The notes beneath the pieces are model-generated. The model was not told the origin of the DNA and did not search any database. It saw only the letters and a program-made list of their open reading frames with translations. The position numbers and the translations under genes were made by a program. DNA of 64,000 nt from Candidatus Aminicenantales bacterium. GTDB lineage: Bacteria > Acidobacteriota > Aminicenantia > Aminicenantales > Saccharicenantaceae. Shown here piece after piece: positions 40,471-58,897 of the stretch (the stretch's first letter is position 1; every line of letters begins with the position of its first letter). Where the stretch lies: assembly GCA_049512315.1 (NCBI GenBank), contig JBEKXF010000005.1, positions 62,001 through 126,000 of the forward strand, written 5' to 3'.

Positions 40471-41224
40471 TGTGCTTTCCTTTTTTCCAGATCGAGCGGA
40501 GCTTGACCTGGCGGAGGAAGAGGGAATAGCCGTCGAGGCCCGCGATCACGAGCCCGGCGAAGCCGTCGAGGAACCCGAGCTTCAGGACATAGGTCACGAG
40601 GAAGCGGAGGGGCGGCAGGACGGCCATGGAGAGGATGCGGCCCTTTTTCCGGCGGGCGTAGAGCTTCTGGGCCGCCAGACCCGAGAACTTGTTGACCCTG
40701 GCCGCGTGTTCGCCGATCGTCTCGAAGGGGAAGTGATGGACGGGCCCGCGGAGCTTTTCGACGTCCCCGTCGACGACAAGCCGCTCATGGACGTAGTCCC
40801 CCTCCCAGCGGGCCCGGTCCCGGCGGAAGAGGCGCACCCGCCGGTCCGGGCGCCAGCCCGAATGACGGATCCAACGGCCGAGGTAATAAGCCTCGCGCGG
40901 GACGGAGAACCCGGCGCAGGCCGGCTCCTTCCCGCGGAGCTTCAAGAGCTCGTCCCGGAGGGCCGGAGAGAGGCGCTCGTCGGCGTCGAGCGAGAGGATC
41001 CAGGAGAAGGAGGCCAGCTTGTCGGCGTGGTTTTTCTGATCGGCGTAGTGAGTCCAAGCGCGCTCGTAGACCCGATCGGTGTACTTGCGGGCGATCTTGA
41101 GCGTGTCGTCCGCGCTGAAGCTGTCGACGACGATGATCTCGGAGGCGACCCCCCCGAGGCTCCGGAGCGCGGCCTCGAGCCGTTTCTCCTCGTTGAAGGT
41201 GATGATGACCGCGGAGATTTCCAC
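40451..41224 (-). CDS. GT2 glycosyltransferase (WaaE/KdtX-like)
   Basis: IIT.NEE, VVDS.S.D.T, LDADE, GW.PD...RLF, VHE, GFLDG..G. Confidence 0.9.
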   Translation of the reverse strand: MEISAVIITFNEEKRLEAALRSLGGVASEIIVVDSFSADDTLKIARKYTDRVYERAWTHYADQKNHADKLASFSWILSLDADERLSPALRDELLKLRGKEPACAGFSVPREAYYLGRWIRHSGWRPDRRVRLFRRDRARWEGDYVHERLVVDGDVEKLRGPVHHFPFETIGEHAARVNKFSGLAAQKLYARRKKGRILSMAVLPPLRFLVTYVLKLGFLDGFAGLVIAGLDGYSLFLRQVKLRSIWKKGKHIEPFPY

Positions 41225-41359: not shown

Positions 41360-42916
41360 TTACCTGATATAGTCGCTCAGAGTGATATTGCGGGTTTCGA
41401 GGGTCGAGCCCGTGACCTTGGCGATGTTCGCCATGGCCACGTTGTAGTCGACGAGGGCCTTCAGCTCCAAGGACCGGGCGCTGGACAGGGCGTCCTGGTA
41501 GGTGAGGACGAAGTAGTTCGTCGACAGTCCAACGCTGAGCTTCTTCATCTCGGCGTCGAGCTGCTTTTCGGCGAGCTCCCGGGCCACGCGATAGGCGTCC
41601 ACGCTCTTGGACGCCGTCTCCAGGCTCAGGACCGCGTCGCTGACCTCGAGGGCGATCTGCTGCTCCTCGTTCTTGAGGCGGGCCTGGCTCTGCTCGAGAT
41701 CGAGCCTGGCGTAGGCATAATTGGCCCGGCCGACCATGTCGCCGAAGGGGATAGACAGGGTCAGCCCGACCGACCAGTTATTGTAGAGGAACTTGAAAGC
41801 GTCCCGGAGGGCCTGCGAGGGGTTGCCTTTTTCAACGCCGATCGGGGCCAGGAAAGGGTTGTTGTCCTGATAGATGATCTTGTCGCCCGCGATGCCGGGG
41901 CTCCCCTTGCTGAGCTTCAGGTCGAGCTGCGGCAGGAGCTGGTTGCGGGCGACCGCGAAATTGATGTGCTTCGTATCGACCGCATATTTCGCGGACTCGA
42001 GCTCCGGCCTCCTGGCCATCGCCTTTTGAAGGGCCTCCTCGTACGTGATCTGGAGTGGCTTGAGGGTGGGTTTGTCGGCCGGCACGACGAGCCGGCCCTT
42101 GGCCCCTTCGTCCGCGCCCAGGTTGAGGAGGGTGCCGAGCTGGTCCCGGCTGCGCCTAACCATGGCTTCGGCCTGGAGGATGTCGGCCTCCCTCCGGGCC
42201 ACGGTCGCCTCGGCGTTGAGGACCTCGATCGGCGCCTTCTGCCCGACCTCGACCTCCTTTTTCGTCTTGGCGAGGAGGTCCCGCCCGAGGTCGAGGGACT
42301 GCTGGAGGGCCTTCAGATTCTCAATGGAATAGACGAGGTTCCAGTAGGCCGCCTCGACGGAGTAGACCGTGTTGATCAGGGTCGTCTTGAACTGGCTGCG
42401 CGAGATGTCGAGGGAATACTGGGCCACGATGATCTGCCTGCGGCTGACCTTCCAGCCGAAGTTCCGGAGCAGCGGCTGGGTCAGGGCGAAGCTCAGGTTG
42501 CCCGTATACGACGGGTTGTAGTTTTGGAACAGCTGGTTATTTCTGGTCCAGTTGTAGTCCAGGCCCACGTTAAAATTTCCGCCGAATGGAATCTGCTGGA
42601 CGAGGGAGAGGTTGGAGTCCGTGTATTTCTGGACATACGTGCCCGAGTTCTGGAGGGACCAGGTCGAGGGCTGTTCATAGCGGTTGCCCGTGAAACCGAC
42701 CCCCAACGTCGGCATATAGAATTGCCTGGCCTCGGAGAGCGTCGCCCCGGCCAGCTCGGGGCTGATGACCTCGGCGGCCACGTTGAGGTTGTTCTTCAGG
42801 GCTTTGACGATAGAATCCTCCAGGGTCAGGGACAGCTCTTTGGTCTCCTGCCCGAACGAGAAAAGGCCGAGGAGGGCCAGGGTGAGAAACATCGCGCTGA
42901 ACGATCGCTTGTTCAT
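41360..42916 (-). CDS. TolC-family outer-membrane channel
   Basis: Signal peptide, LTLED.I..AL.NN, TQPLLR.FG, RPEL, LPQLDL and two OEP repeats. Confidence 0.9.
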   Translation of the reverse strand: MNKRSFSAMFLTLALLGLFSFGQETKELSLTLEDSIVKALKNNLNVAAEVISPELAGATLSEARQFYMPTLGVGFTGNRYEQPSTWSLQNSGTYVQKYTDSNLSLVQQIPFGGNFNVGLDYNWTRNNQLFQNYNPSYTGNLSFALTQPLLRNFGWKVSRRQIIVAQYSLDISRSQFKTTLINTVYSVEAAYWNLVYSIENLKALQQSLDLGRDLLAKTKKEVEVGQKAPIEVLNAEATVARREADILQAEAMVRRSRDQLGTLLNLGADEGAKGRLVVPADKPTLKPLQITYEEALQKAMARRPELESAKYAVDTKHINFAVARNQLLPQLDLKLSKGSPGIAGDKIIYQDNNPFLAPIGVEKGNPSQALRDAFKFLYNNWSVGLTLSIPFGDMVGRANYAYARLDLEQSQARLKNEEQQIALEVSDAVLSLETASKSVDAYRVARELAEKQLDAEMKKLSVGLSTNYFVLTYQDALSSARSLELKALVDYNVAMANIAKVTGSTLETRNITLSDYIR

Positions 42917-43032
42917 GTCATTCCTCCAAAGCGATGACTTTTCGCCAGAATGCCAGTCTAGCAGATTCGAGAAGGGGCGCAAAACGACGCCCTCTAAGAT
43001 ATATACGTATTTTCACGGCTTTCGTTTCGCTT

Positions 43033-44421
43033 TCATTCGGGCCAACGGATCCGGAGAATGGTCATCTTGTTGAACAGGGTCTTGCGGCTCACCCCGAGGA
43101 GCCGGGCCGCCCGGGTCCGGTTCCCCCCGGTCTGCCGCAGGGCGTCGAGGATGAGCTCCCTCTCCGTCCGCTCGGCGACGCCCTGGACGGTCTCCCGCAG
43201 CGCCTGGGGGGGCCGGGCCGGAGGATGGGCCCCCCCCGTCTCCGCCGCCGGGGAGCGGAGCCGCGAGGGCAGCGCCCGCTCGTCCACCCGGGGGCCGTCG
43301 GCCATGACCATGGCCTCGTAGATCACGTTCTCGAGCTCGCGGACGTTCCCGGGCCAGGGATACGCGGCGAGGCGGGCCATCACCGCGGCCGTCACCCCGC
43401 TGGCCTCTTTCCCGAGCTCCCCCGCGTATTTCCGGACGAAGTGTTCGGCCAGGAGCGGAATGTCCTCCGCCCTGTCCCGGAGCGGCGGAAGCTCAAGCGA
43501 CAGGACGGCCAGCCGGAAATATAGGTCCTCCCGGAAGGCGCCCTTCCGGACCTGCTCTTCGAGGTTCTTGTTCGTAGCCGCGATGACCCGGACGTCGACC
43601 GGGATCGTCGCCGTCCCGCCGACCTTGACGATCTCCCTCTCGCCCAGGGCCCGGAGGAGCTTGACCTGGGCGTCCTGGGAGAGCTCCCCGACCTCGTCGA
43701 GGAAGATCGTCCCTTTGTGGGCCAGCTCGAACTTGCCCGTCTTTTCGGTCCGGGCGTCCGTGAAGGCCCCTTTGACATGGCCGAAGAATTCGCTCTCGAT
43801 GAGGTCCCGGGGGATGGCGCCGCAGTTGACCACGACGAACGGGCCGTCCTTGCGGGGGCTGGCGAAATGGATGGCCCGGGCGACGAGCTCCTTGCCGGTC
43901 CCGCTCTCGCCCGTGACGAGGACCGTCCCGTCGACCCGCGACATCTTTTCCATGAGCTGGAAGACCGAGTTCATCCGGCCGCTCGTCCCGACGATGTTCG
44001 AGAAACGGTAGCGCGAGACGAGCTCCGACCGCAGGCTCTCGACTTCCTTCCGGAGGGTCTTGACCTCGAGGATCCGGGCCACGGCCAGGAGCATCTCCTC
44101 GTTGTCCACGGGTTTCTCGAGGTAGGCGTAGGCGCCGAGCTTGGTGGCCTCGACGGCGCTCCGGATCGTCCCGTAGGCGGTGACGATGATGATCCCCGTC
44201 CCGGGGTGATCCGCCCTGAGCCGGGCCAGGACGTCGAGCCCGGAGAGGTCGGGGAGGTTCATGTCGAGCAGGATGACGTCGGGCTCGAGGAGCCGGGCTT
44301 CTTCGACCCCCGCTTCCCCGGCCTCCGCCGTCCCGACCTCGTATCCGTGGTCCTCGAGGAGCAGGGAAAAGACGTCGCGGATGTTCTTCTCGTCGTCGAT
44401 GATCAGGATCCTGGGCTTCAT
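43033..44421 (-). CDS. NtrC-family sigma54-dependent response regulator
   Basis: Receiver domain (IIDDE...LLD), GESGTGKE, GAFTDA, WPGNVRELEN, Fis-type HTH. Confidence 0.96.
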   Translation of the reverse strand: MKPRILIIDDEKNIRDVFSLLLEDHGYEVGTAEAGEAGVEEARLLEPDVILLDMNLPDLSGLDVLARLRADHPGTGIIIVTAYGTIRSAVEATKLGAYAYLEKPVDNEEMLLAVARILEVKTLRKEVESLRSELVSRYRFSNIVGTSGRMNSVFQLMEKMSRVDGTVLVTGESGTGKELVARAIHFASPRKDGPFVVVNCGAIPRDLIESEFFGHVKGAFTDARTEKTGKFELAHKGTIFLDEVGELSQDAQVKLLRALGEREIVKVGGTATIPVDVRVIAATNKNLEEQVRKGAFREDLYFRLAVLSLELPPLRDRAEDIPLLAEHFVRKYAGELGKEASGVTAAVMARLAAYPWPGNVRELENVIYEAMVMADGPRVDERALPSRLRSPAAETGGAHPPARPPQALRETVQGVAERTERELILDALRQTGGNRTRAARLLGVSRKTLFNKMTILRIRWPE

Positions 44422-44437
44422 GCGGGGTCTCCCTTTC

Positions 44438-45682
44438 TCAGGCCGCGGGGAGCGTCACGAGGACGGTCGTCCCTTCGCCGACGCGGCTCCTCACCTCGAT
44501 CTCCCCCTGGTGCGATTTGACGACGCTGTAGCAGATCGACAGGCCCAGCCCCGTCCCGCCCTTTTTCGTCGTGAAAAATGGGTCGTAGATCTTGTCCATA
44601 TTCTCCTCCGGGATGCCCTCGCCCGTGTCGATGATCCGGGTCAGGATCTTCCCGTTGGCCAGGGGCAGGATCTCGCAGACGAGCTTGCCCCCGCCTTCCA
44701 TGGCCTGGATGGCATTGAGGAAAATATTGAGGAAGAGCTGCTTGACCTGGGACTTGTCCCCGTTGAGGAAGACCGGCCCGGCCGGGAACTTCGTCTCCAC
44801 CTCGACCCCGGCGGAGCGGGCCTGGAAGGAGATCAGGGCCAGGCTTTCCTCGAGGGTCACACCCAGGTCCACCTGTTCTTTTTTTATATCGGACGGCCGC
44901 GAGAACGATAGGAGCGCGGCCAGGATCTCGTCGATCCGGTCGGTCTCCTGGAGGGCGATCGCGAGGAGCTTCTTCTCCTTCTCTTCCTGGAAGCGGCTCT
45001 CCAGGTACTGGAGGGAGGACTTGATGGCGGTCAGCGGGTTCCGGATCTCGTGGGCGGCGCCCGCGGCGAGCTCGCCGATCGTCGCCAGCCGGTCGGCCCG
45101 GATCATCCGCCGGAACCTCTCCCGCTGCTCCTTGTAGAGCATGGCGTTTTCAAGGGCGATGCCGGCCTGGGGCGTCAGCGATCCGATGAAGGCCATCTCC
45201 GGCCTGGAAAAATCTCCCGGAGGCGTTTTCGGCCCGACGCAGAGGATGCCGATCAGCCGGTTCATGGACAGGAGCGGGTAGCAGAGCTCGAAGCCGAAAG
45301 TCCGGAAGATGTCCCGTTCTCTCTCGCCCAGGAAATCGAAGACGCCGGGCTGGCTCCGGACCTGGAGATAGGTCTTGTTGATCTTGAGCCACTTGGCCAA
45401 GTGGTCCTGGGGCGAGAAGGCCAGGGCCTTGAGACGGGCCTCGTCGATGCCGGTCGCCGCCGAGACCCGGAACTGGGTCAGGTCGTTATCGTAGATGAAG
45501 AAAGCCAGGACCTCGACGGGGACCGCTTCTCTGACCGTGCCCAGGAAGTTGAGGGCGATCTGGTCGAAGTCCTCGATGAGGTTCAGGCTTTCGGCGAACT
45601 CCCGGAAGATCAGGCGCGTCTCGCCCTCGGCGACCTTCCCGCGCGCCGGCTTGGTCTTCGAAGGACGGAAAATCGCGCTCAT
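44438..45682 (-). CDS. Cytoplasmic GAF-domain sensor histidine kinase
   Basis: GAF-like N-terminus ending GIALENA, AHEIRNPL, N box, DTGEGI, FFTTK..GTGLGL; no TM segment. Confidence 0.93.
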   Translation of the reverse strand: MSAIFRPSKTKPARGKVAEGETRLIFREFAESLNLIEDFDQIALNFLGTVREAVPVEVLAFFIYDNDLTQFRVSAATGIDEARLKALAFSPQDHLAKWLKINKTYLQVRSQPGVFDFLGERERDIFRTFGFELCYPLLSMNRLIGILCVGPKTPPGDFSRPEMAFIGSLTPQAGIALENAMLYKEQRERFRRMIRADRLATIGELAAGAAHEIRNPLTAIKSSLQYLESRFQEEKEKKLLAIALQETDRIDEILAALLSFSRPSDIKKEQVDLGVTLEESLALISFQARSAGVEVETKFPAGPVFLNGDKSQVKQLFLNIFLNAIQAMEGGGKLVCEILPLANGKILTRIIDTGEGIPEENMDKIYDPFFTTKKGGTGLGLSICYSVVKSHQGEIEVRSRVGEGTTVLVTLPAA

Positions 45683-45752
45683 GAACTCATGCTTTTGCCG
45701 TCAGAATGATACAAGGATACAGGAATCCGGGGAATTTGTAAAAGCAGCCGAC

Positions 45753-45800
45753 TGGGTAATTTGGGTAACACATTTCCCATTTTTGGGTAACGATGGTAAC
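45753..45800. promoter_or_regulatory. Candidate upstream activator (enhancer) sites
   Basis: Repeated TGGGTAA/TGGTAA, including TTCCCA-N4-TGGGTAA, about 170-215 bp upstream of the sigma54 site. Confidence 0.5.
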
Positions 45801-45967
45801 ATTTGCAGTCATTTTAATCTCTGTCTGTTCGATATAGGATCCTATCATTAGGCAATCCTATTGCAATAATCGGGCCGAATTCGGCAGGCGCTGAGCTGAG
45901 GGGGGCGGACGGAGGAAAAAAACCAGGACCGTCCCTATTTCTCTTTCTCGTGGCGTGAATAGGAGTT

Positions 45968-45983
45968 TGGCACTAGAATTGCA
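45968..45983 (+). promoter_or_regulatory. Sigma54 (-24/-12) promoter
   Basis: TGGCAC-TAGAA-TTGCA with GG and GC separated by 10 nt; divergent from the sigma54 activator. Confidence 0.9.
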
Positions 45984-46015
45984 AGTATGGAAGTGACACC
46001 CTTGGAGGGATACGC

Positions 46016-47503
46016 ATGAAGATCATCAAAACCGTCGCCATCCTGGTCACGTTCCTCGTCGTGGCCTGGACGCTGGCCGCCCAGACCCAGGAATCCCAGA
46101 GCATGAAGCTTCTCCGGTTGAAAAGCGCCCAGCTCTCGCTCGAGCTGAAAAAGGCCGATTTCCAAAGATACCTGAAATTGAAAGAGGAAGGCCTGGCCTC
46201 CGAGGCGGACTTCGCCGAGAGGCAGACCGCCTATCTCCAGGCCCAGGTCGATTACCAGCAGGCCCTGATCAACTTCATGGGCAGCGAGGCCCGGATCTCG
46301 GTCGCGAGCGCCGTCAAGTTCCAGGACCGGAGCGGCAAGAAGTTCGTCCGCGTCTCTCTGCGCTATTCGTCCAAGGAGCTCAAGGAGCTGGCCAATCTCA
46401 AGATCAGCGCCGAGGACCTCTTTCCCCTGGACTTCATGAAGGAGATCAAGGATGTCTATGTCTCCCTCCTCTCGGAGGGGAAGATCATCTCCGACCCGTA
46501 CGAAAAGGTCGTCAAGTCCCTGCCCATAGAGTCGGAGAGGGAGGTGACCTTCCAGCTCCTCAAGGACGTCGAGAACCTGGAGGTCAGCGTTGGCTATTCC
46601 GGGAAGGAGGAAAAGACCTCGGTCTTCCTCCAGAAGGGGGTCAGCGCCAACATCGTGACGGTCAACTCGGCCCAGTTCTCGCAGGAGGCCGACCTCGAGG
46701 GCACGGCGACATACGACCTGTCGCTCGAGAAGTTCAGCGGCGAGGCCAACATCTTCAAGCTCGAGGTCGCCAACCTGCCCCAGCAGATCACCTATGAGTT
46801 CTCCGACCCGACGACCTCGGCCCGGCTCTCCCAGATCAAGTTCAGCGAGGGCGTCACGAGCCTCAAGCTCCAGCTCAAACTCTATCTCCCCAAGAACCCG
46901 GACACCCAGGTCGTCCTGGACAAGCCGATGGAGTTCTTTGTCCTGGCCATGGACAACGACCAGACGGCGAAGCTCCGGGAAATCGAGAAGGCCAACCCGG
47001 GCGTCGTGATCGAGCCCAAGGACATCGACGTCCTGAAGGCGGGGTCCGTCAAGCTCGAGCTCATCCCGCGCGGCGTGCCCAAGGTCGAGGTCCAGGCCGT
47101 GAACCTCTACCACGAGATCAAAGTCGGGGAGATCGTCGGCATGGACGTCACGGTCAAGAACACGGGAACTCGCAAGCTCAACAATATCAGGGTCTTCTGC
47201 GACCTGCCCCTGAATTGGCGGGTGGAGATCAAGCCCGACCTGATCGCGACGCTCGAACAGAACAAGGACGAGGTCGTCACCATCAAGTTCATCCCGCCGA
47301 CGGACGTCTCGGTCGGCGACTACGAGCCCAAGATCCGCACGGATTCGGCGGCCGAGAACCGGCGGGTCGAGTCCGAGGACAAGATCGTCCGCATCCACAT
47401 CACCTCGAAGACGAACGTCCTGGGGATCACGGTCCTGATCCTGCTCCTCGTGGGGCTCCTCGTCGGGATCGTCGTCTTCGGGATCAAGCTGACGAGGAGA
47501 TAG
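46016..47503 (+). CDS. Exported NEW3/Ig-like domain protein with an N-terminal MFP-like alpha-hairpin and a C-terminal TM anchor
   Basis: Signal peptide; helical R51-x3-L55-x6-S62 segment; VKNTG...LP.NW....P...GDY (NEW3-like); terminal TM plus KLTRR. Confidence 0.75.
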   Translation: MKIIKTVAILVTFLVVAWTLAAQTQESQSMKLLRLKSAQLSLELKKADFQRYLKLKEEGLASEADFAERQTAYLQAQVDYQQALINFMGSEARISVASAVKFQDRSGKKFVRVSLRYSSKELKELANLKISAEDLFPLDFMKEIKDVYVSLLSEGKIISDPYEKVVKSLPIESEREVTFQLLKDVENLEVSVGYSGKEEKTSVFLQKGVSANIVTVNSAQFSQEADLEGTATYDLSLEKFSGEANIFKLEVANLPQQITYEFSDPTTSARLSQIKFSEGVTSLKLQLKLYLPKNPDTQVVLDKPMEFFVLAMDNDQTAKLREIEKANPGVVIEPKDIDVLKAGSVKLELIPRGVPKVEVQAVNLYHEIKVGEIVGMDVTVKNTGTRKLNNIRVFCDLPLNWRVEIKPDLIATLEQNKDEVVTIKFIPPTDVSVGDYEPKIRTDSAAENRRVESEDKIVRIHITSKTNVLGITVLILLLVGLLVGIVVFGIKLTRR

Positions 47504-47512
47504 GAAGCGCAG

Positions 47513-48898
47513 ATGTTTGGCACGATCTTTAAGAAAGAGCTCCTGGACCAGATCCTTAGCCCCAAGTTCCTGATCGTCTCGCTCCTCTGCCTGGTCCTCA
47601 TTCCGGCCGGCCTTCTCCTGAATTACTCGAGCTATCAGAACGTCTTCCACGAATATGACGCCTCTCAGAAGGAGGCCAAGAATTCCACGACCATCTACCG
47701 GGAGCCGAGTGTCCTCGGCACTTTCGGCATCGGCCTCGAGAGCGTTCTCCCCGAGAAAGTCACCTTCGTCAAGTACGAGACGGACGCCAAGGGCCTCCAG
47801 GCTCAGAACGAGGTCCTGAGCCAGATCAACGGAAAGCTCGACTTCGTCGTCATCACGAGCTTTCTCCTCGGCCTTTTCGCTATCCTCTACGCTGGGACGA
47901 TGGCGAGCGGAGAAAAGGAGGCCGGGACCCTCAAGCTCGTCCTTTCGAATCCGGTTAAACGCAGCACGGTCATCGCCGCCAAGTTCCTGGGCGGTTTCAG
48001 CGTCCTCATGATCCCCTTCGCGGTCAGCACGCTTCTCGGCGGGTTGCTTCTTCTTTTCGAGGGGTTCCCGCTTTTCGCCGACGGCAACACGAGTCGGGTC
48101 CTGGCCTTGATCGTCCTCTCGATCCTCTATCTCGCGGCCCTCTTCTCCCTGGGCCTGCTCATCTCGACACTGACGCACCGGACGAGCATCGCGCTTCTCG
48201 CGGGTTTCTTCGTCTGGATCTTCCTGACGTTCGTCATCCCGAAAACGAGCGAGCCGTTGGCCGGCCTTATCCACCGGATACCGAGCGAAGAGGCCATGAA
48301 GGCCAACCGGGCCCAGGTCCGCAACCAGATCGAGAAGGAGAAGGGCAAGGCCCTGGCCCCCTTGATGGCGAAATATCTCCCCAACGACGGGCAGGGGAAA
48401 TGGGAATGGAACACCTACACCAAGGTCCGCGGGCCGGTGGCCAAAGAGTACGAAGAGCGGCTCGACCAGACCCTCCAGAAGTTTGACGCGGATTACGAGC
48501 GCCAGAAGGCCGCCCAACGGGCCCTCAGCCTCAACATCGCCCGCCTCTCGCCGGCCTCCGCCTATACCCAGGCGTCGCTGAACTTCTGCCATACGGGGAT
48601 CGCCGACCTCGAGAATTTCTCACGCAGCCTCCAGGCTCATTACATCCAACTCTATCAGGCCGTCTTCAAATACTCGTTCCAAGACACGTTCTCCTCTGAG
48701 GACGGAAGAACCAACCGATCAATGGGAGGAGATTCGAGCCCGGAGGGCAAGATCGACTACCCGAAATTCCGCTACCAGTTCCCGGCGTTCGAGGAAACGT
48801 TCAAGGACACAGCGCCCGACATCGTCTTGCTCGTCCTCTTCAACCTGATTTTTTTCGCCGCGGCCTATTATTCGTTCATCAGGTATGACGTGCGCTAA
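47513..48898 (+). CDS. ABC-2-type permease, paralog 1
   Basis: I.KKE N-terminus, GEKEAGTLKLVLSN, large extracytoplasmic loops, ends YDVR. Confidence 0.9.
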   Translation: MFGTIFKKELLDQILSPKFLIVSLLCLVLIPAGLLLNYSSYQNVFHEYDASQKEAKNSTTIYREPSVLGTFGIGLESVLPEKVTFVKYETDAKGLQAQNEVLSQINGKLDFVVITSFLLGLFAILYAGTMASGEKEAGTLKLVLSNPVKRSTVIAAKFLGGFSVLMIPFAVSTLLGGLLLLFEGFPLFADGNTSRVLALIVLSILYLAALFSLGLLISTLTHRTSIALLAGFFVWIFLTFVIPKTSEPLAGLIHRIPSEEAMKANRAQVRNQIEKEKGKALAPLMAKYLPNDGQGKWEWNTYTKVRGPVAKEYEERLDQTLQKFDADYERQKAAQRALSLNIARLSPASAYTQASLNFCHTGIADLENFSRSLQAHYIQLYQAVFKYSFQDTFSSEDGRTNRSMGGDSSPEGKIDYPKFRYQFPAFEETFKDTAPDIVLLVLFNLIFFAAAYYSFIRYDVR

Positions 48899-48906
48899 GA
48901 GCATGA

Positions 48907-48931
48907 ATGTACATACACCTGTACATATAAT
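48907..48931 (+). promoter_or_regulatory. Palindromic operator abutting a TATAAT -10 element (internal promoter)
   Basis: ATGTACA-TACACC-TGTACAT, then TATAAT (48926-48931). Confidence 0.55.
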
Positions 48932-49005
48932 AGGAAACACGAGAGGTACGGATCCATCCGAGTTCTCAGGTAAGAAAACCTGCCATTCCATAAAGAGGAG
49001 GTAAT

Positions 49006-49749
49006 ATGGCAAAACAGCAACCCATCTTGAAGGCTGACGACCTGTCAAAACGGTACGAGGACGGCGTCCTTGCGGTAGATCACCTGAACCTGAATATCTA
49101 CCCGGGTGAAGTCTACTGCCTGCTCGGGGCCAACGGCGCGGGGAAGACGACGACGATCAACCTTTTCCTGAACTTCATCCCGCCGACGACCGGGACCTGC
49201 TACGTCAACGGTATCGACGTCACCAAGGACCCGCTCGAGGCCAAGAAGTACGTCTCCTTCGTCTCGGAGAACGTCATGCTCTACGGCAACTTCACGGCCC
49301 GCCAGAACCTCGACTTCTTCGCCAAACTCGGCGGCAAGACGAACCTGGCCAAGAACGACTACTATCAGGTCATGCGCCGGGTCTCGCTCCAGGAGAAAGC
49401 CTTCGAACAGCGGGTCAAGAACTTCTCTAAAGGCATGCGGCAGAAGCTCGGCATCTCGATCGCCGTCATCAAGGACGCGCCGGGCATCCTGCTCGACGAG
49501 CCGACCTCGGGCCTCGACCCGAAGGCGGCCGAGGAGTTCCTGGAAATCTTGAACGAGCTCAAGAAAGAGGGCAAGGCCATCCTGATGTCCACTCACGATA
49601 TCTTCCGGGCCAAGGAGATCGGCGACCGCGTCGGGATCATGAAGGAAGGGCGGCTGGTCATGGAGCGGACCCGCGAGGAGCTCCAGTATGAGGACCTGGT
49701 CAAAATCTACATCGACTACATGAAGTCCGAGCCCCTGACGTTGTCCTGA
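49006..49749 (+). CDS. ABC transporter ATP-binding protein
   Basis: GANGAGKT, FSKGMRQK, LLDEPT, STH. Confidence 0.96.
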   Translation: MAKQQPILKADDLSKRYEDGVLAVDHLNLNIYPGEVYCLLGANGAGKTTTINLFLNFIPPTTGTCYVNGIDVTKDPLEAKKYVSFVSENVMLYGNFTARQNLDFFAKLGGKTNLAKNDYYQVMRRVSLQEKAFEQRVKNFSKGMRQKLGISIAVIKDAPGILLDEPTSGLDPKAAEEFLEILNELKKEGKAILMSTHDIFRAKEIGDRVGIMKEGRLVMERTREELQYEDLVKIYIDYMKSEPLTLS

Positions 49750-49811
49750 CGGACCGGCGTCGCCGACGCCCCTGTGCGCCTGCGCGCCACCGGTTCCAGG
49801 AGACAAACGCT

Positions 49812-51254
49812 ATGTTGAAAACGATCATCAAGAAAGAGGTGCTGGAGACGATCTTCAGCTACCGGTTTCCGCTCTTCGCCATCATCTGCCTCCTCCTCAT
49901 CCCGCTCGGGATGACCGTTAACCAGGCCAGCTACGCTAAAAGAGTCCGGGACTACAGCGAGCAGGTCCGGCTGGCCGACGAGGCGGCCGCGGCCATCAAA
50001 ATTCAGGACGTCATGGCCGGAACCGTGGCCGTCAAGGGCTTCCGGCGGCCGGCGCCCCTCTCAGTCTTCACCCAGGGGTTCGAGAGCACGCTCCCCCGCT
50101 ATTACGAATTCACCCAGGACGGCTTCAAGCCGGGGGAATCGGCGAGCGACGACGAATCGATCCTTTCGGTCCAGGGCAAGGTCGATTTCGTCTTCCTCGT
50201 CCAGATGGTCATCAGCCTGATCGCCCTGCTCTTCGCCTCGGACATGGTTTCGGGCGAGAAGGAGGCGGGGACGCTGCGGGCCATGCTCGCCAACAGCCTG
50301 CCGCGCGACACGCTCCTGGCCGGGAAGATCGGCGGCGGCTATCTGGCGCTGTGGGTCCCGTTCCTCGTCGCCTTCCTGCTGGGCACGGTCGTCCTCATGC
50401 TGGCCGCGTTGCCTCTCTTCGGCGGCGACGCGACGGCGCGCGTCCTGATCATCTTTCTCGCGACGTCCCTCTTCATCCTGACCTACTTCACGATCGGGAT
50501 CGCGGTCTCGACGAGCGCGGCCAAGGCCCGGACCTCCCTCGTGGCCATCTTCATCGTCTGGGTGGCCTTCCAACTGATCATTCCCAAGCTCGGCGACATG
50601 GTCGCCCGCCTCGTCTATCCCGTCCGGACCGAAACCGCGGTCTCGCTCCAGAAATCCCTCCTCGTCCGGTCGCTCGACATCGAGACGGCCAAGGAGCTCG
50701 GCCGCCAGTTCGACCTCATTTTCGGTGCCGCGCCGAAGGGCGCCGTGGACGACGAAAAATCACCCGAGAGGAAAAAATGGGACCCGATCAGAGACGATAT
50801 CCAGCTCCGGACCCGGGAGAGGAAGGGCCAGCAACTCGCGGCTATCGACGAAACCTACATCCAGGAGAGGCGGCGGCAAACGAACCTGGCCGTCAACCTT
50901 TCGCTCGTTTCGCCGAGTGCCGCCTTCGCCCGGTTCGTCGCGGACGTCTGCGGGACGGGAGAGCTTGAGCGGGCCAAGTACATCGAGGCGGTCCGGTCCC
51001 ATCAGAAGGCCCTCGACAACGAGCTCTTCAGCAAGGTCAAACGGACGCTTATGATGCACGAGGGTGGGGGCATGTCGATGTCGTTCTCGGCCATGCCCGT
51101 GGACGCGTCAAAGCTCCCAAAATTCTCGATCGTTCCGGCCTCGATCGCGGAGACGTTCAAGGCAAACGTGCGGAGCCTCCTCTCGCTCCTCTTCTGGCTC
51201 ATCGCCCCCTTCGCCTACGCGTACGTCCGGTTCATCAAATACGACGTGAGGTGA
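49812..51254 (+). CDS. ABC-2-type permease, paralog 2
   Basis: GEKEAGTLRAMLAN; ends YDVR. Confidence 0.9.
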   Translation: MLKTIIKKEVLETIFSYRFPLFAIICLLLIPLGMTVNQASYAKRVRDYSEQVRLADEAAAAIKIQDVMAGTVAVKGFRRPAPLSVFTQGFESTLPRYYEFTQDGFKPGESASDDESILSVQGKVDFVFLVQMVISLIALLFASDMVSGEKEAGTLRAMLANSLPRDTLLAGKIGGGYLALWVPFLVAFLLGTVVLMLAALPLFGGDATARVLIIFLATSLFILTYFTIGIAVSTSAAKARTSLVAIFIVWVAFQLIIPKLGDMVARLVYPVRTETAVSLQKSLLVRSLDIETAKELGRQFDLIFGAAPKGAVDDEKSPERKKWDPIRDDIQLRTRERKGQQLAAIDETYIQERRRQTNLAVNLSLVSPSAAFARFVADVCGTGELERAKYIEAVRSHQKALDNELFSKVKRTLMMHEGGGMSMSFSAMPVDASKLPKFSIVPASIAETFKANVRSLLSLLFWLIAPFAYAYVRFIKYDVR

Positions 51255-51282
51255 CATCGAGTTTCGCGGATGTGAGGATCAG

Positions 51283-52617
51283 ATGTTGAAAACGATCATC
51301 AAGCGGGAAATCCTCGAATACCTGAAATCCGCCAAGTTCCTCATCGGCCTCGGCATCACCCTGGCCCTGGCGGCCGGCAGCACGGTCATCAACGTCCAGG
51401 ATTACAAGGGGCGCCTGCAGGATTACCAGGCCGCCGTGCAGGAACTGAAGAGCGACCGCTTCTACATCCATCTTTACCGGCCACCCCAGGTCCTCAGCAC
51501 CCTCATTCAAGGGAAGGACCGGTCCCTCGGTAACAGTATTACCATCACATATATGGGTATCCCGCCTCGCACGTCGGGCTACATGGGCGAGGGAAGAAGC
51601 CAGCATCAACGACTTGTTTCGGGGTTCGCGGCCATCGATTTCGCTTTCATCGTCCGGGTCGTGCTGAGCCTGATGGTTATTTTTATCGCCTACAACGCCG
51701 TATCCGAGGAGAAAGCCTCGGGGACCCTGAAGCTGACCCTCTCGAACCGGGTGCCGAGGGACCAACTCCTGCTCGGCAAGTTCCTGGGCGGGTGGTTCGT
51801 CATCATGGGCTCGCTCGCCGTCTCCGCCCTCGTCTCCCTGATCATCGTGCTGTCCCATTCATTCGTCTCCTTCGCCTCCGGGGAATGGACCCGCCTCCTC
51901 GTCTTCATCGGCCTTTCGGCCCTCTACCTCACGGTTTTCTACGGGCTGAGTCTTTTCGTGTCGGTTCTCGTCGACAGGCCCTCCATTTCCCTGATGATCT
52001 TGCTCCAGGCGTGGGTCTTCCTGATCATCATCTATCCCAACCTGGGTATCATCGCCGCCGACAGCCTTTACAAGCTGCCGAGCGAGGAACAACTCATAAA
52101 ACAACATGCTGCGGCTTTCCAACCCTACGCAGCGGAATATAAAAAGGTCATGGAGGCCTTTAGCCAGAGCGTGCGCAAAGGCGAGATGAACAAGGAGCTC
52201 GGCCTGCGCAGCGTGGAGCTCGACGCTTTGAACGCCGAGTTGATCCACCAGGCTGACGAAGAGTTGAGCCGTAAACTCACGGCGCAGACCAACTTGGCCC
52301 GGGCGATCTCGAGCCTTTCGCCTGCGGTATTGTTCGACCAGGCCGCCGAGCGGTATGCCCGGACAGGGATGGCCGAGTACGAGCGCTTCATGCGGGAGGT
52401 CTATCGCTGCTGGCAGCAGGATGTCGAAAGGTCCAAACTCATCTACACCGACCGCGAGGCCTATAAAAAGGCGCCGCCCATCGATTTCCGCCTTCCCGTT
52501 GAGTCGACGGCCGAGGCCTTTGCCGCGACCTGGCTCCAGTGGCTCCTCCTCGCCTTCTTCGGCCTAGCCTTTTTCGCCCTGGCGTATACGGCCTTCCTGA
52601 AGAAGGACGTGAGGTGA
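51283..52617 (+). CDS. ABC-2-type permease, paralog 3
   Basis: EEKASGTLKLTLSN; ends KDVR. Confidence 0.9.
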   Translation: MLKTIIKREILEYLKSAKFLIGLGITLALAAGSTVINVQDYKGRLQDYQAAVQELKSDRFYIHLYRPPQVLSTLIQGKDRSLGNSITITYMGIPPRTSGYMGEGRSQHQRLVSGFAAIDFAFIVRVVLSLMVIFIAYNAVSEEKASGTLKLTLSNRVPRDQLLLGKFLGGWFVIMGSLAVSALVSLIIVLSHSFVSFASGEWTRLLVFIGLSALYLTVFYGLSLFVSVLVDRPSISLMILLQAWVFLIIIYPNLGIIAADSLYKLPSEEQLIKQHAAAFQPYAAEYKKVMEAFSQSVRKGEMNKELGLRSVELDALNAELIHQADEELSRKLTAQTNLARAISSLSPAVLFDQAAERYARTGMAEYERFMREVYRCWQQDVERSKLIYTDREAYKKAPPIDFRLPVESTAEAFAATWLQWLLLAFFGLAFFALAYTAFLKKDVR

Positions 52618-52621
52618 CATC

Positions 52622-54022
52622 ATGAGGACGATCATCCGCAAGGAGCTCCTGGATCACCTGAGAAGCGTTCAGTTCGCAGTCCTGCTCGCGGCGAGTCTCG
52701 TCCTGTTCGCGGTGAACGGGCTCGTCTTCGTCCGGCAATATCGCCAGCTCAATTCCGATTTCCGGCTCCATGTCGCGGAGGTAGAGCAACACCCGAGCAC
52801 GACGATGACATCCCTCTTCAAATCACCGAGCCCGCTGCTGTTCGTGGCGGAGGGGGGAGAAAAAAACAGCCCGTCCAGTTATTACTTGAGCCCGAAACAG
52901 ACTATCTCGGCCATGTCATCCGGCCCGCGCAACTTCAAAATGCCGGAGGTCCCTGATCTCGACTGGGCTTTCATCATCAAGATCGTCTTTAGCCTGTACG
53001 TGATCCTTCTCGGGTTCGAGGCCGTGTCCGGCGAAAAGGAGCGGGGCACGCTCCGTCTGATCCTTTCCAACCCGGTCGGCCGGCTGAGGCTCCTGACAGG
53101 GAAATACCTGGCCATCATTTTGAGCGCCGCCATCGCCCTGCTCGTCGGACTCCTCATCAGCCTCGTCGTGATCGCCGTCTTCCTTCCGGCGGTCTTGAGC
53201 CTGCCCAACTTGACGCGCATCGCCTTCCTTTTCGTCCTCGCCCTGGCCTACCTCTCCCTCTTCGCGTTCCTGGGCCTCTTTTTCTCCGCGCTCATCCTCC
53301 GTTCCTCACTCGTCCTCCTCGTCCTCTTGGCCTTTTGGATTTTCTTCGCGTTCTTCATCCCAGACACGTCGGGCATTATCGCCCAAAAATTCTCGAACGT
53401 TCCGAGCGAATACGAGATGGCCAAGCTCGTGGGGCCGACCATCCAGAAAGAAGTCTGGGACAGAATAAGTAAGCTTCAGAACAGAATCCAAAAAGGCGAA
53501 TTGAAGACGGAAAAAGACGTCCGTGAAGAGGCTGACCTTGCCTACGAGGAAGGCCAGGACCATGTCCGGAAGCTCTATACCGATTATGACCATGCCATGC
53601 AGCAGAGGGCCGATTTGGCCCAGAAGATATCGCGTGCTTCGCCGGTGGCCCTGCTCCAATATTCTGCCGAGGACATCGCGGGAACCGGGCCTGCGGCCGA
53701 CGCTAGGTTCCTCCAGGACGCTCGGAACTATTCCAGGGCATACGATGATTACATCCTGAAAAAAGTTGGGAAAGTCGTCGGGACATCTCCCTGGAGCTTT
53801 TCGACTAGCGCGACCCTGAACGGCAAGCATATCTTCCTCGAATCTCCCGCCCCGCTGGAATACGAAGGAGACAAGTCCGATTTCCCCAGGTTTTCCGAGA
53901 CCAAGGCGACGCTCCTCGACGGCCTGGGGAGCGGTCTGTGGGACATCGCCGGCCTGCTCGTCTGGAACATCCTGCTGGCCGGGCTGGCGTTCTCGGCGTT
54001 CCTGAGGACGGACGTGAGGTAA
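52622..54022 (+). CDS. ABC-2-type permease, paralog 4
   Basis: GEKERGTLRLILSN; ends TDVR. Confidence 0.9.
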   Translation: MRTIIRKELLDHLRSVQFAVLLAASLVLFAVNGLVFVRQYRQLNSDFRLHVAEVEQHPSTTMTSLFKSPSPLLFVAEGGEKNSPSSYYLSPKQTISAMSSGPRNFKMPEVPDLDWAFIIKIVFSLYVILLGFEAVSGEKERGTLRLILSNPVGRLRLLTGKYLAIILSAAIALLVGLLISLVVIAVFLPAVLSLPNLTRIAFLFVLALAYLSLFAFLGLFFSALILRSSLVLLVLLAFWIFFAFFIPDTSGIIAQKFSNVPSEYEMAKLVGPTIQKEVWDRISKLQNRIQKGELKTEKDVREEADLAYEEGQDHVRKLYTDYDHAMQQRADLAQKISRASPVALLQYSAEDIAGTGPAADARFLQDARNYSRAYDDYILKKVGKVVGTSPWSFSTSATLNGKHIFLESPAPLEYEGDKSDFPRFSETKATLLDGLGSGLWDIAGLLVWNILLAGLAFSAFLRTDVR

Positions 54023-54039
54023 GCGAGCAGGGGGACATC

Positions 54040-55287
54040 ATGACCTGGACCATCGCCCGGAAAGAGATCCTTTCGAACCTCCTGAGCTATAAATTTTTCA
54101 TCGTCCTTCTCCTCATCGTCCTGCTCATCGCCACCAGCCTCTTCATCATGCACCGGGACTACAGGCAGAGGATGGCCGACTACCAGGTCATCCGGCCCAA
54201 ACCCGGCGAACGGATCGCGCTCGTCGCGCCCAACCCCCTGTCCATCTTCGCCAAAGGGCTCGACGACGCCATTACCCGCTCCTTCGAGATCAGCCCCGTC
54301 GGCATCGAGGTCCGGGCCGGCCAGTCCTCGGGCAACATCATCTACTCTTTTTTCCCGGCGCCCGACTTTCTCTATGTCGTCCGGGTCGTCCTGTCGCTCG
54401 TCGCCCTCCTTTTCGGCTTCGACCAGGTCAGCCGGGAACGCGAGCAGGGGACGCTGAAGCTCCTCCTGGGGAGTTCCATCTCCCGGGCCAGGGTCCTCGC
54501 CGGCAAGTGGATCGGGAACTTCCTGAGCCTGGCCGTCCCCTTCCTCCTGGTGACGCTCCTCGGCACCATGGTTCTTTTCCTCGACCCGGAGGGCCGTCTC
54601 TCTACGGGCCAGTTCGCGCGGTTGGCGCTCATCCTGGCCCTTTCTCTTCTCTACCTGGGCTTTTTCCTGAGTCTTGGTATGCTTGTCTCGGCCCTGACCC
54701 GGCGCGCGGCGACCTCGATCATCGTCCTCCTCTTCATCTGGGCCCTTTTCGTTTTCATCATCCCCAACCTGGGCACGCTGTTGGCGCGCCAGTTCGTCAG
54801 GGTCCCGTCGGTCCGGGCCCTGAGCGAAAAGCGGCAGCAGACCTGGACGCGGGAGGTCCTCCTCAGCATCAAGGACCAGAGCTGGCAGACCCATTTGCGA
54901 ACGATCAGCGACGAAAACGACAAACTGGCGCAGGACTACCGCTTGAAGTTCGAGCGCCTCGTGCGTCTTTCCCGGGACATCAACCGCGTCTCCCCGTCGG
55001 CGAGCTTCCTCGACGCCGCGAGCGAGATCGCCGGCACGGGGATCGGCGAGGAGAGCCGTCTCAAGGAGGAGATCGTCCGTTATAAGGACTCGATCATCGA
55101 CCAGATCATCGCCAACGAGAGCTCCGGGGAGCGGGACGCGCAGTATGCCGCGTTCACGTACAGGCCGAGGCCGCTCGCCGAGGTCTTCTCCGCTGGGGCT
55201 CTCTTCGATACGGTCTGGCTCGTTTTCTTCAACATCCTCTCATTCGCCCTGGCCTATGTCGCGTTCGTCCATTACGACGTGAGGTAA
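54040..55287 (+). CDS. ABC-2-type permease, paralog 5
   Basis: Start set at MTWTIARKE; REREQGTLKLLL; ends YDVR. Confidence 0.9.
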   Translation: MTWTIARKEILSNLLSYKFFIVLLLIVLLIATSLFIMHRDYRQRMADYQVIRPKPGERIALVAPNPLSIFAKGLDDAITRSFEISPVGIEVRAGQSSGNIIYSFFPAPDFLYVVRVVLSLVALLFGFDQVSREREQGTLKLLLGSSISRARVLAGKWIGNFLSLAVPFLLVTLLGTMVLFLDPEGRLSTGQFARLALILALSLLYLGFFLSLGMLVSALTRRAATSIIVLLFIWALFVFIIPNLGTLLARQFVRVPSVRALSEKRQQTWTREVLLSIKDQSWQTHLRTISDENDKLAQDYRLKFERLVRLSRDINRVSPSASFLDAASEIAGTGIGEESRLKEEIVRYKDSIIDQIIANESSGERDAQYAAFTYRPRPLAEVFSAGALFDTVWLVFFNILSFALAYVAFVHYDVR

Positions 55288-55291
55288 AGCC

Positions 55292-56722
55292 ATGCTGAAG
55301 ACGCTCATCACCAAGGAGATCCGGACGAACATCCTGTCCTTCAGGTTCCTCGCGAGCTTCGTCATCCTCTTCGTCGTCGTCGCCGTCACGGCCGTCGTCC
55401 TGGCCGGCAACTACACGCGGAAACTCGACGAGTATTCCCAGCGCCAGGCGGAGATCGGGAGTTACCTCAGGAACTACGCCCACTTCAACCGGATCGGCAA
55501 TATCCTCCAGGCGACGCAGCCGCCCATCCCCTTCCAGGCCCTCGTCCGGGGCCTGACGTCCGACATCAACATGGAGGAGTTCGACGACGACCCCCTGCCG
55601 GTCATGTTCCCGCTCATCGACCTGACTTTCATCGTCACCATCCTCGCGAGCCTCATCGCCCTGATCCTGTCCTACGACGCCGTTTGCGGCGAGAAGGAGG
55701 ACGGGACGCTGAAACTGATGCTCTCGAACGGCCTGCCGCGGTCGAAGATCGTCCTGGCCAAGTTCGCCGGCGGAGTTCTGACGCTCATCGGGCCTTTCCT
55801 CGTGTCGATCGCGGCCGGGATGCTCATCATCCTCCTCCACCCGCGCGTCAACTGGACGGGCGCGGACTGGGGCGCCCTCGGGCTGATCGTCGCCGGGGCG
55901 GTCCTCTACATCTCCGTCTTCTATCTCATCGGCATCCTCATCTCGTCGGTCCACAGGACCAGCGCATCGTCGATCATGACCTCGCTCTTTGTCTGGGTCC
56001 TCCTCATCCTCGTCGTCCCTAACCTGAGCCCTTATGTCTCGTCGTTCCTCGCGCCGGCGCCTTCGCGGATCAAGGTCGCGCGGGAAGTGAGCCGGTTAAC
56101 GGACGTCGATCGGGACGACCTCGGGCGAAAGCTCATGGCCGAGTACAGGGGCGAGGTCCTCAAGCAGTACCCGGTGCTCGCCGAGCGGCGGTCGGAAGCC
56201 GAGGTCAAGAAGCGCGTCGCAGAGGATTCTGAATACCGGAAGGCGTATGAGGCGAACCGGGCGGCGGTCGAAAGGGCCTGGGCCGAGGCCAATCGGACTC
56301 AGAACGGCAAAGCCGAAGTGCTGAATCAGGACCTCCGGCAGAAGGAAGAGGCGCAGACGGACCTGGCCCGCTCGATCTCCATGATCTCGCCGCTCGCCGA
56401 CTTCAGCTATTTCGCTACGGACCTGTCCTCGACCGGGACGGAGAACATGGCCCATTTCGGACGGCTAGCCCAGGCCTGGGGCCAGGCTTTCTACCGCGAT
56501 TACCAGAATAAAAAAATCGCAGAGCTGAAGGCCAAGGACCCGACCGCCGACGCGTGGAACACGGCCATCGATATGACCGACTCACCCCGGTTCCGCTATG
56601 TCGAGGAGGGACTGGGGGGCAGGGTCAGGGCCGCGTTGCCGCCGTTCGCGGCCCTGCTGGGCTACTGCGTGGTGCTCTTCGCCGCGGCCTACGTGGCGTT
56701 CATTCGCTACGACGTGAGGTGA
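55292..56722 (+). CDS. ABC-2-type permease, paralog 6
   Basis: GEKEDGTLKLMLSN; ends YDVR. Confidence 0.9.
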   Translation: MLKTLITKEIRTNILSFRFLASFVILFVVVAVTAVVLAGNYTRKLDEYSQRQAEIGSYLRNYAHFNRIGNILQATQPPIPFQALVRGLTSDINMEEFDDDPLPVMFPLIDLTFIVTILASLIALILSYDAVCGEKEDGTLKLMLSNGLPRSKIVLAKFAGGVLTLIGPFLVSIAAGMLIILLHPRVNWTGADWGALGLIVAGAVLYISVFYLIGILISSVHRTSASSIMTSLFVWVLLILVVPNLSPYVSSFLAPAPSRIKVAREVSRLTDVDRDDLGRKLMAEYRGEVLKQYPVLAERRSEAEVKKRVAEDSEYRKAYEANRAAVERAWAEANRTQNGKAEVLNQDLRQKEEAQTDLARSISMISPLADFSYFATDLSSTGTENMAHFGRLAQAWGQAFYRDYQNKKIAELKAKDPTADAWNTAIDMTDSPRFRYVEEGLGGRVRAALPPFAALLGYCVVLFAAAYVAFIRYDVR

Positions 56723-56724
56723 TC

Positions 56725-56891
56725 CTAATTCGGTGACATACAACTAATTACCGAAATAGGATACGATTTCCCCCCCCCACGGGGTTGCTTTTTCACGAAC
56801 TTTAAGCAGTTCTTGGGTTTTTAAGTCGAAAGGGGTGGCCGTCGGCTCTCCGTTCAGTAATTCGGTAATTAGTTGTATGTCACCGAAATAG
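56725..56891. mobile_element. REP-doublet/MITE-like element with 27-bp perfect inverted repeats
   Basis: TTCGGTGACATACAACTAATTACCGAA (56729-56755) and its exact reverse complement (56861-56887); AT-rich spacer. Confidence 0.75.
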
Positions 56892-58312: not shown

Positions 58313-58372
58313 CAGGTCCTGGCCGGACGGCGGGGATCGATTCTGGACATCGCGTGGGAGGCCGGCAGAGAC

Positions 58373-58897
58373 CTATCCTTTCGGGGTTGAATGCCTGATC
58401 TTCCCCCAGGCAGCGTCGAAATCGAAAACCGTGCCGTGGGCGCTCTCGTGACACTTCAGGCACAGGGCCTTGATCTTGCCGGGGGTGCCGTAAAGGAGGA
58501 GGCCGTTCTTGGCCGCCGCGTCCCTGTTCTTCATGAGGCTGAGCTTCTTGTATTCGCTCCCCGGGCCGTGACAGGCTTCGCAGGAGACGCCCTCGGCCTT
58601 GAGTTCCGGGGCCTTGGCGCAGAGCGGGGCGTGGCACTTCAGGCAGGCGGGGCTTTCGGCGGGCGGTGTGGCGACCCCGGCGTCTATCGCCATCCCGGCG
58701 GCCTCAGGCTTGCTCAGGGCGTCGAAGGATTTGGAGTGCTTGCTCTCCTCCCAGATCGGGTACTGCCGGCCCTGCCGTTCCGTCCTGTGGCAGACCTGGC
58801 ATTTCTGGGCCCCGACATAGGAGAATTCCTGGGCCGGGGCCGGGCTGACGAGAAGACCGCAAACGGCGAGAGCGGTCAAGGCCAAAGCTTTTTTCAT
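58373..58897 (-). CDS. Tetraheme c-type cytochrome (c554-like)
   Basis: Signal peptide from MKKAL; YVG...CQVCH, CLKCH, GVSCEACHGPGS, CLKCH. Confidence 0.9.
   Translation of the reverse strand: MKKALALTALAVCGLLVSPAPAQEFSYVGAQKCQVCHRTERQGRQYPIWEESKHSKSFDALSKPEAAGMAIDAGVATPPAESPACLKCHAPLCAKAPELKAEGVSCEACHGPGSEYKKLSLMKNRDAAAKNGLLLYGTPGKIKALCLKCHESAHGTVFDFDAAWGKIRHSTPKG

Follow-up and report, generated by a model that had tools for sequence, protein, structure and literature searches.

Organization of the locus

The window analyzed here is a stretch of 64,000 nucleotides from a Candidatus Aminicenantales bacterium (contig JBEKXF010000005.1 of assembly GCA_049512315.1, positions 62,001 to 126,000), and it contains a candidate ATP-binding cassette (ABC) export system. 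According to the open reading frames and family scans, a 10.7 kb operon on the plus strand (46016 - 56722) encodes, in this order, an adaptor protein of 495 residues with immunoglobulin (Ig)-like domains, permease P1 (461 residues), a single ATPase (247), and permeases P2 (480), P3 (444), P4 (466), P5 (415) and P6 (476). The genes have ribosome-binding sites and are separated by gaps of 4 - 107 bp. Family scans identify the genes on the minus strand of the locus as coding for a TolC-family protein, an NtrC-type activator and a histidine kinase. The original prediction had described this same set of genes, all of which are found where it had placed them.

The locus is real and intact. Decay of the window genes, and of the permease paralogs in particular, is ruled out, all six permeases being intact and under purifying selection. 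Frameshifted copies found in relatives L023, L037, L038 and L033 may be assembly errors. Close relatives of the locus are present in the peat metagenome runs X3 - X5.

The adaptor protein

The first gene of the operon (46016 - 47503, plus strand) encodes the adaptor, a PF10633 protein, which was modeled by AlphaFold2 from a 100-row alignment with a predicted local distance difference test (pLDDT) value of 92. A signal-like helix (residues 2 - 21) is followed by a helical hairpin (28 - 89, with helices 28 - 57 and 63 - 89), three Ig-like domains (93 - 204, 214 - 352 and 357 - 463, the last being a NEW3 domain) and a C-terminal membrane helix (468 - 494). Hydrophobic segments lie at residues 3 - 21 and 468 - 486; signal cleavage was judged by eye. 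As modeled, the protein is a chimera, in which a hairpin of the membrane fusion protein (MFP) type is carried by three Ig-like domains and a C-terminal anchor. The original prediction had stated that no canonical HlyD/MFP or substrate-binding protein is encoded in the locus. The family scan agrees with this, but an MFP-type hairpin was nevertheless present in the first gene. The adaptor is indeed non-canonical, as had been proposed.

The tip of the hairpin carries the motif R51-x3-L55-x6-S62 (46166 - 46201, plus strand), which has the spacing of the TolC-binding RLS motif as given in the accessible text of PMC3391258. An α-helical hairpin with such a tip is a hallmark of MFPs. The motif is complete in 35 of 37 Aminicenantes adaptor rows, and the triple (with S or T in the last position) is found in 48 of 100 diverse homologs, compared to 7% of shuffled hairpins; the counts for the individual columns in these 100 sequences are 64 for R, 89 for L and 70 for S. 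The hairpin is as conserved as the Ig domains (81% versus 78 - 83%). In the PDB, the adaptor profile matches only sialidase/NEW3-type Ig domains and the hairpins of the MFPs MacA, MexA, ZneB, MexJ and AcrA, with E values of 0.004 - 0.06. The adaptor, used as a single query, gave 14 weak matches to residues 27 - 113 in Aminicenantes genomes; 10 of these were fetched, and all six that were scanned pass the PF16576 cut-off, i.e. are canonical HlyD-type adaptors (hhalign E value of 1.6e-6). Residues 25 - 90 of the model overlay MexA with a Z score of 11.1 (rmsd 1.7, 66 aligned residues), although helical hairpins easily reach values near 11. Three lines of evidence thus assign the hairpin to the MFP type.

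The β-domains of the adaptor match tandem Ig folds, and Foldseek returned only generic tandem-Ig matches with a TM-score of about 0.3 or less. No HlyD or lipoyl Pfam match is found in the adaptor or in any of 22 homologs. Lipoyl and β-barrel folds are also missing from the fold matches listed, although absence from these does not exclude them. Furthermore, the hairpin of an MFP is inserted between lipoyl halves and accompanied by a β-barrel, whereas in the model the hairpin of the adaptor comes directly after the signal helix with no strand before it. Because no lipoyl or HlyD domain was found, the adaptor is not regarded as a member of the MFP family, although it would appear to work like one.

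With 200 representatives at 50% clustering (E values up to 1e-30), the adaptor belongs to a broad family. Homologs outside Aminicenantes are labeled Bacteroidota, Handelsmanbacteria and Zixiibacteriota, each by a single label. The adaptor is present in 21 of 41 relatives and in 60 of the 201 genomes of the class, after removal of 12 hairpin-only matches; the best 80 of 205 relatives obtained in the genome-collection scan are all close. Plasmid searches with the adaptor and P4 gave no match. Two natural in-frame fusions, P0339 and P0239, consist of a complete P6-like permease and the adaptor, and therefore tie the adaptor to the permease. They come from different archives and are 90% identical to each other. 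A search for longer adaptor forms (938 - 2675 residues), which is a weak test, gave two unrelated NEW3 proteins and no further fusions. In the relatives P0139, P0140 and P0157 (718 - 797 residues) the first Ig domain is repeated, as though the stalk had been adjusted in length to a wider periplasm. In L065, L073 and L150, the stretch examined encodes an adaptor but neither a permease nor an ATPase of the family.

TolC and its linkage to the adaptor

The TolC-family outer-membrane factor (41360 - 42916, minus strand; PF02321 E value of 3e-46) has about 518 residues. Its start is probably the ATG at 42916, which has GGAGG upstream, although the reading frame is open from 42982. The tip glycines Gly247 and Gly485 are invariant in all 37 rows.

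Linkage was surveyed in 134 adaptor loci, or 92 after dereplication, 65 of which are Aminicenantes loci with at least 5.5 kb of upstream sequence. In 52 of these 65 a TolC gene is present, which is divergent, lies past the two-component genes or, in many cases, is itself part of the operon and located directly upstream. The linked genes occur in at least four arrangements and belong to two TolC subfamilies that are about 43% identical. Of 80 distant metagenome loci, 20 have a TolC gene that directly adjoins the adaptor gene; among the 25 that have 4 kb on both sides, TolC is linked in 7. Thus the co-occurrence of adaptor and TolC, on which the original prediction had hinged, holds in Aminicenantes and is weak among distant loci. 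Five genomes that lack TolC in the adaptor locus (including G008) each have 2 - 4 close TolC paralogs elsewhere, and the genome of the window has 16 canonical adaptors but 3 TolC matches, which makes it plausible that adaptor loci share an unlinked TolC. The RLS hairpin, the fusions and the linkage give indirect support to the predicted bridge that the adaptor would form between transporter and TolC. A complex prediction with TolC (residues 80 - 530) and three adaptor pieces (residues 25 - 205) gave a score of 0.22 (mark, 0.32), which speaks neither for nor against binding.

Permeases and ATPase

All six permeases pass the Pfam ABC2_membrane_2 cut-off, have six hydrophobic segments each and are 23 - 31% identical to each other. 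The four motifs named in the original prediction, I.(K/R)(K/R)E, E(K/R)..GTL(K/R)..L, a late SP and a terminal DVR, are present in every one of them, and the two extracytoplasmic domains are the most divergent parts, as had been noted (19% identity between paralogs versus 35 - 48% in the membrane parts). As modeled (pLDDT 86), P2 is a type V permease from which a long helical hairpin extends into the periplasm. Its best match is NosY, with a Z score of 26.1 and a root mean square deviation (rmsd) of 2.5 over 252 aligned residues; ABCG and ABCA proteins follow, the next-best Z score being 20.1. The six-helix type V (ABC-2) fold of NosY, ABCG and ABCA is thus modeled for P2 and assigned to the other five permeases by homology. 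The six helices, and the lack of a MacB_PCD or FtsX Pfam match, distinguish the permeases from the type VII MacB/FtsX fold. PF12040 (DUF3526) scores above 25 bits in P1, P3 and P4 and below this in P2 and P6; P5 does not match it, but its Atlas look-alikes are DUF3526 clusters.

The ratio of nonsynonymous to synonymous substitutions (dN/dS) is 0.12 - 0.23 for the six permeases (2 - 4 orthologs each) and does not exceed 0.45 in the loops, ruling out the diversifying selection on the loops that a comparison with the membrane cores had been meant to detect. The divergence is old and is conserved within orthologous groups. Judged by the sequences, the permeases reflect an old, fixed specialization.

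The ATPase (49006 - 49749, plus strand) is intact, with Walker A and B motifs, a signature and an H-loop, and has a dN/dS of 0.03 - 0.08. The glutamine of the Q-loop is replaced by glutamate (an 'E-loop') in this protein and in nearly all of the family ATPases listed. The nearest models, all of them below threshold, are DrrA, gallidermin immunity, GldA, NodI and PmtA. That the ATPase is common to several permeases, as originally proposed, is supported, because the genome has just one further family ATPase, which is 64% identical and is located beside a seventh permease on contig C22. The latter pair (L039:7518-9673) consists of a single permease of the N3 type and its own E-loop ATPase, and lacks both a sigma-54 motif and an enhancer. 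An N3-ATPase pair directly precedes the adaptor, without TolC, in about ten relatives.

Permease modules

The 194 full-length permeases of the family form orthologous groups that are stable at identity thresholds of 40 - 50%. Their co-occurrence was counted in 53 loci judged complete, 39 of 92 having been dropped as truncated; 7 of the 53 were judged complete by hand, and 2 of these had been extended with further stretches. Group N11 was counted as P6, following a quick permease tree. P5 and P6 occur jointly in 41 of the complete loci and P3 and P4 in 9, in neither case singly. The pairs N1/N2 (14 loci), N9/N5 (4) and N7/N8 (4) likewise have no single members, and N6/N4 are joined in 5 loci, apart from which there is one N6 fragment. 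Non-cognate permeases are different: the adjacent P2 and P3 are found together in 7 loci and singly in 14 and 2, respectively, P3 and P5 are both present in 9 loci with P5 alone in 32, and P1 and P2 vary singly.

Gene order follows the same division. The gene after P5 is P6 in 43 cases, an inserted N1/N2 pair in 4 and a P6-clade protein in 1, a contig edge being reached in 7. P3 is followed by P4 in 13 of 14 cases and N1 by N2 in 20 of 21; the neighbors of P1, P2 and N3 are varied. Contigs in three runs join the ATPase gene directly to P3, skipping P2 alone (sides of 24 - 49 bases). Low coverage of P3/P4 in X4 and of P3 - P6 in X6 was not used, as no contig joined the flanks. In the permease tree, the first and second members of several pairs form mirrored clades (N1/N7/N9/N13 and N2/N8/N5/N14), and N4/N6 is a recent split inside the single-module group. 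Within the adaptor tree, loci with P3/P4 fall into separate clades, and the pair was therefore gained or lost as a unit several times.

The permeases are thus likely to be organized as two fixed pairs, P3/P4 (51283 - 52617 and 52622 - 54022) and P5/P6 (54040 - 55287 and 55292 - 56722), which are likely heterodimers, and two singles, P1 (47513 - 48898) and P2 (49812 - 51254), which are likely homodimers, all on the plus strand and each gained or lost as a unit. Accordingly, the window likely contains four modules that use one ATPase. It counts against this arrangement that paired permease genes adjoin each other and that related genomes are not independent.

Regulation

The kinase (44438 - 45682, minus strand) has GAF, HisKA and HATPase domains and no membrane segment, and the signal is therefore either cytoplasmic or relayed via a partner. 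The activator (43033 - 44421, minus strand) consists of a receiver, an AAA+ domain and HTH_8 according to the family scan, and reaches the cut-off of none of the named NCBIfam models listed. A motif search found a sigma-54 promoter (TGGCAC-N5-TTGCA; 45968 - 45983, plus strand) 48 bp upstream of the adaptor start; there are 21 such sites genome-wide. Further upstream, repeated TGGGTAA half-sites with an imperfect palindrome at 45762 - 45779 form a predicted enhancer (45753 - 45800), where the activator likely binds. TGGGTAA is present in 22 of 25 intergenic regions between kinase and adaptor.

A sigma-54 motif is located within 450 bp of the first gene of the operon in 31 of 40 dereplicated loci that have the kinase and activator genes and in none of 32 that lack them, although related genomes are not independent; six short loci without these genes, one of them with a motif, were set aside. 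The promoter co-varies with the kinase and activator genes and the half-sites recur, so that control of the operon by the divergent pair, as the original prediction had it, is well supported. The soluble kinase would phosphorylate the activator, which would bind the TGGGTAA sites and open the promoter. Scans for sigma-70 promoters and terminators gave hits at chance level only.

Flanking genes and repeats

Two glycosyltransferase genes (39373 - 41224, minus strand) lie 3' of TolC. The first of them, the neighbor of TolC, recurs as a member of the same family in more than 20 related loci, probably by plain synteny. Genes for two multiheme cytochromes c and for a cytochrome b (56869 - 58957, minus strand) converge on the end of the operon and are not kept beside it in relatives. 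Directly 3' of P6 there are two inverted copies of a palindromic repeat of roughly 30 bp (56726 - 56757 and 56861 - 56890), which looks like a REP-type dispersed element; over 20 additional copies are spread across 12 contigs of this genome. The 104 bp between the two copies are replaced by 16 bases in contigs from X3 and X4.

Proposed mechanism and alternative interpretations

We consider it reasonably probable that the locus encodes a sigma-54-controlled, envelope-spanning ABC exporter with one ATPase, four alternative permease modules and a chimeric adaptor predicted to couple to TolC. The modules in the membrane would be P1/P1, P2/P2, P3/P4 and P5/P6, and an ATPase dimer would use the conserved E(K/R)..GTL coupling helix as its docking site on any of these permease dimers. 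The adaptor, its signal peptide cut, would be held beside the permease by its C-terminal helix; the three Ig domains would form a stalk, and the hairpins would oligomerize tip-to-tip with TolC. The periplasmic domains of each module would select their own class of amphipathic cargo, to be taken from the inner membrane or the periplasm and passed out through TolC.

The nature of the cargo is a guess, with peptides or similar envelope-active molecules being the best candidates, though at somewhat less than even odds. The E-loop resembles that of LanF, a hint towards peptides, and serine hydrolases, S41 and M61 peptidases and radical SAM/SPASM genes adjoin distant copies. Together with the nearest ATPase models, these hints lean to peptides or amphipathic molecules, but none is specific. 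The peptidase neighbors come from few related clades, which weakens the argument, and the surroundings of the Aminicenantes loci yielded no conserved gene for a cargo or a precursor. Radical SAM/SPASM genes (L199:3145-4578, L200:3152-4585 and L247:5621-7309) lie beside P5/P6-like permeases and an adaptor, which suggests modified-peptide clusters. In another clade (L182, L185, L186, L189, L190, L187, L188 and L193), genes for a tandem-PDZ protein, for a PF00144 serine hydrolase and/or for an S41 peptidase belong to the operon or adjoin it.

Several observations weigh against coupling to TolC. TolC is missing from 13 of the 65 Aminicenantes loci and from 18 of the 25 well-flanked distant ones, and among the distant loci as a whole an intact R-L-S does not track linkage, since 18 of 20 TolC-linked adaptors have N/S-L-S. 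Conservation of the RLS motif is neither absolute nor exclusive to TolC systems, and hairpin adaptors also occur in Gram-positive bacteria (PMC4446572, accessible text). In two genomes (88 - 89% complete) the adaptor is present but no family permease was found. The genome of the window, which gave 3 TolC matches by query, encodes 16 canonical adaptors (PF16576 matches, all outside the window) that could use the TolC of the locus. The Ig-like protein could then be an accessory periplasmic subunit that serves an ABC-2 transporter as NosD or GldG would, with a self-oligomerizing hairpin, and TolC would serve canonical MFP pumps elsewhere. The absence of TolC from the N3-ATPase-adaptor loci, the adaptor relatives P0176 and P0177, which have no hairpin, and the fact that NosY, the nearest solved permease, belongs to a system without TolC all fit such an arrangement. 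It is nevertheless unlikely, because TolC remained linked although the genes were rearranged several times and one TolC subfamily was exchanged for another, all five genomes tested hold close TolC paralogs elsewhere, and the RLS spacing is retained far above chance.

The original prediction favored combinatorial pairing of the six permeases on the common ATPase, or one large hetero-oligomer, either of which would widen the substrate range. One ATPase for six permeases with a common coupling motif, and 0 - 10 permease types per locus, are what one would expect from such mixing. However, with the exception of the N6 fragment, cognate pairs are never broken, whereas adjacent non-cognate genes are, and N1 and N2 change position jointly, also to a site between P5 and P6. 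As one- and two-permease loci are common, no six-subunit complex is needed. Both versions are thus improbable. About equally doubtful is a device for envelope biogenesis or mechanical work, in which the permease hairpins work a periplasmic partner or both ends of the adaptor are anchored, as in KpsE. NosFY and GldAFG perform ATP-driven mechanical work on a periplasmic partner; NosY is by far the closest fold of P2, and there are weak GldF and GldA matches. The adaptor hairpin overlays not only MexA but also KpsE (Z score of 9.4, rmsd 2.0, 64 aligned residues). Furthermore, the signal segment is internal in both permease-adaptor fusions, making its cleavage uncertain. Yet family scans of the operon genes found no NosD, NosZ or GldG and no partner for polysaccharide export, and the patchy presence of the adaptor and the modular gain and loss of permeases fit inducible defense or export better than housekeeping.

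If the TolC-coupled exporter is accepted and the adaptor docks on TolC, the hairpin alone would be a portable docking device with the rest of the adaptor replaceable, and this natural chimera would test the tip-to-tip model. A pump that gains or loses its specificity modules as fixed pairs around a single motor offers a clean system for studying the partner fidelity of ABC heterodimers, and DUF3526 permeases obtain a first functional frame. In the widest sense, the locus might, with a probability a little below one half, represent a third periplasmic-adaptor architecture: an MFP hairpin on a length-adjustable Ig stalk with inverted anchoring, used in several uncultured diderm phyla by type V TolC pumps, whose plug-in modules share one motor, for peptide export or detoxification.

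Comparison with known systems

None of the characterized systems matched the locus by family models or by the features that define membership, and a literature search that covered little of the subscription literature found no description of such an adaptor or system. Like MacAB-TolC, the system combines an ABC motor, an adaptor with a short RLS hairpin and a TolC-family channel. Unlike MacAB-TolC, its permeases are of type V (Z score of 26.1 with NosY versus 7.5 with MacB), its adaptor has an N-terminal hairpin, a C-terminal anchor and no lipoyl or β-barrel domain, and several permease modules are found per ATPase. YbhG-YbhFSR(-TolC) of E. coli has heterodimeric six-helix permeases, a separate ATPase and probable use of TolC, as far as the accessible text of PMC7190983 describes it, and is similar in these respects, but YbhG is a canonical MFP, there is one permease pair, and control is by TetR instead of a sigma-54 two-component system.

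NosDFY contains the closest solved permease by sequence (E value of 1.5e-11) as well as by fold. NosY, however, has about 270 residues and no large periplasmic domains, and there is no NosD partner or nos gene among the 17 genes scanned around the locus. LanFEG and PmtABCD are peptide exporters of type V with an E-loop ATPase and a divergent, obligate heterodimer (bioRxiv 10.1101/2025.10.09.681468, accessible part). The E-loop and the divergent permease pairs are shared with LanFEG. Nevertheless, these systems are Gram-positive, with small permeases and neither adaptor nor TolC, and the operon described here has no peptide-synthesis genes. The ATPase scores 147.7 bits with the LanF model TIGR03740 (cut-off 309.75), and no LanE or LanG model is matched. 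The scores for GldA (142, cut-off 402.6) and GldF (21 - 31, cut-off 288.5) are also too low for GldAFG, and GldG is not matched.

KpsMT-KpsE is likewise a type V ABC system with a non-MFP helical periplasmic adaptor, but KpsE, which partners an OPX protein, lacks an Ig stalk, and the present locus has no genes for capsule export. A single ATPase common to several permease sets is known from MceG with Mce1 and Mce4 (PMC9947336, accessible text), which, unlike the present system, are lipid importers with another fold, separate operons and MCE tunnels. The accessible parts of recent reviews describe adaptors as anchored at the N-terminus and built from hairpin, lipoyl and β-barrel domains and, in most cases, a membrane-proximal domain (PMC13328181, PMC8277102); in one of them (PMC8277102) the ABC transporters listed as established in tripartite pumps are confined to types IV and VII. 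Compared to these, the system is likely an undescribed variant of the tripartite ABC pump with predicted coupling to TolC.

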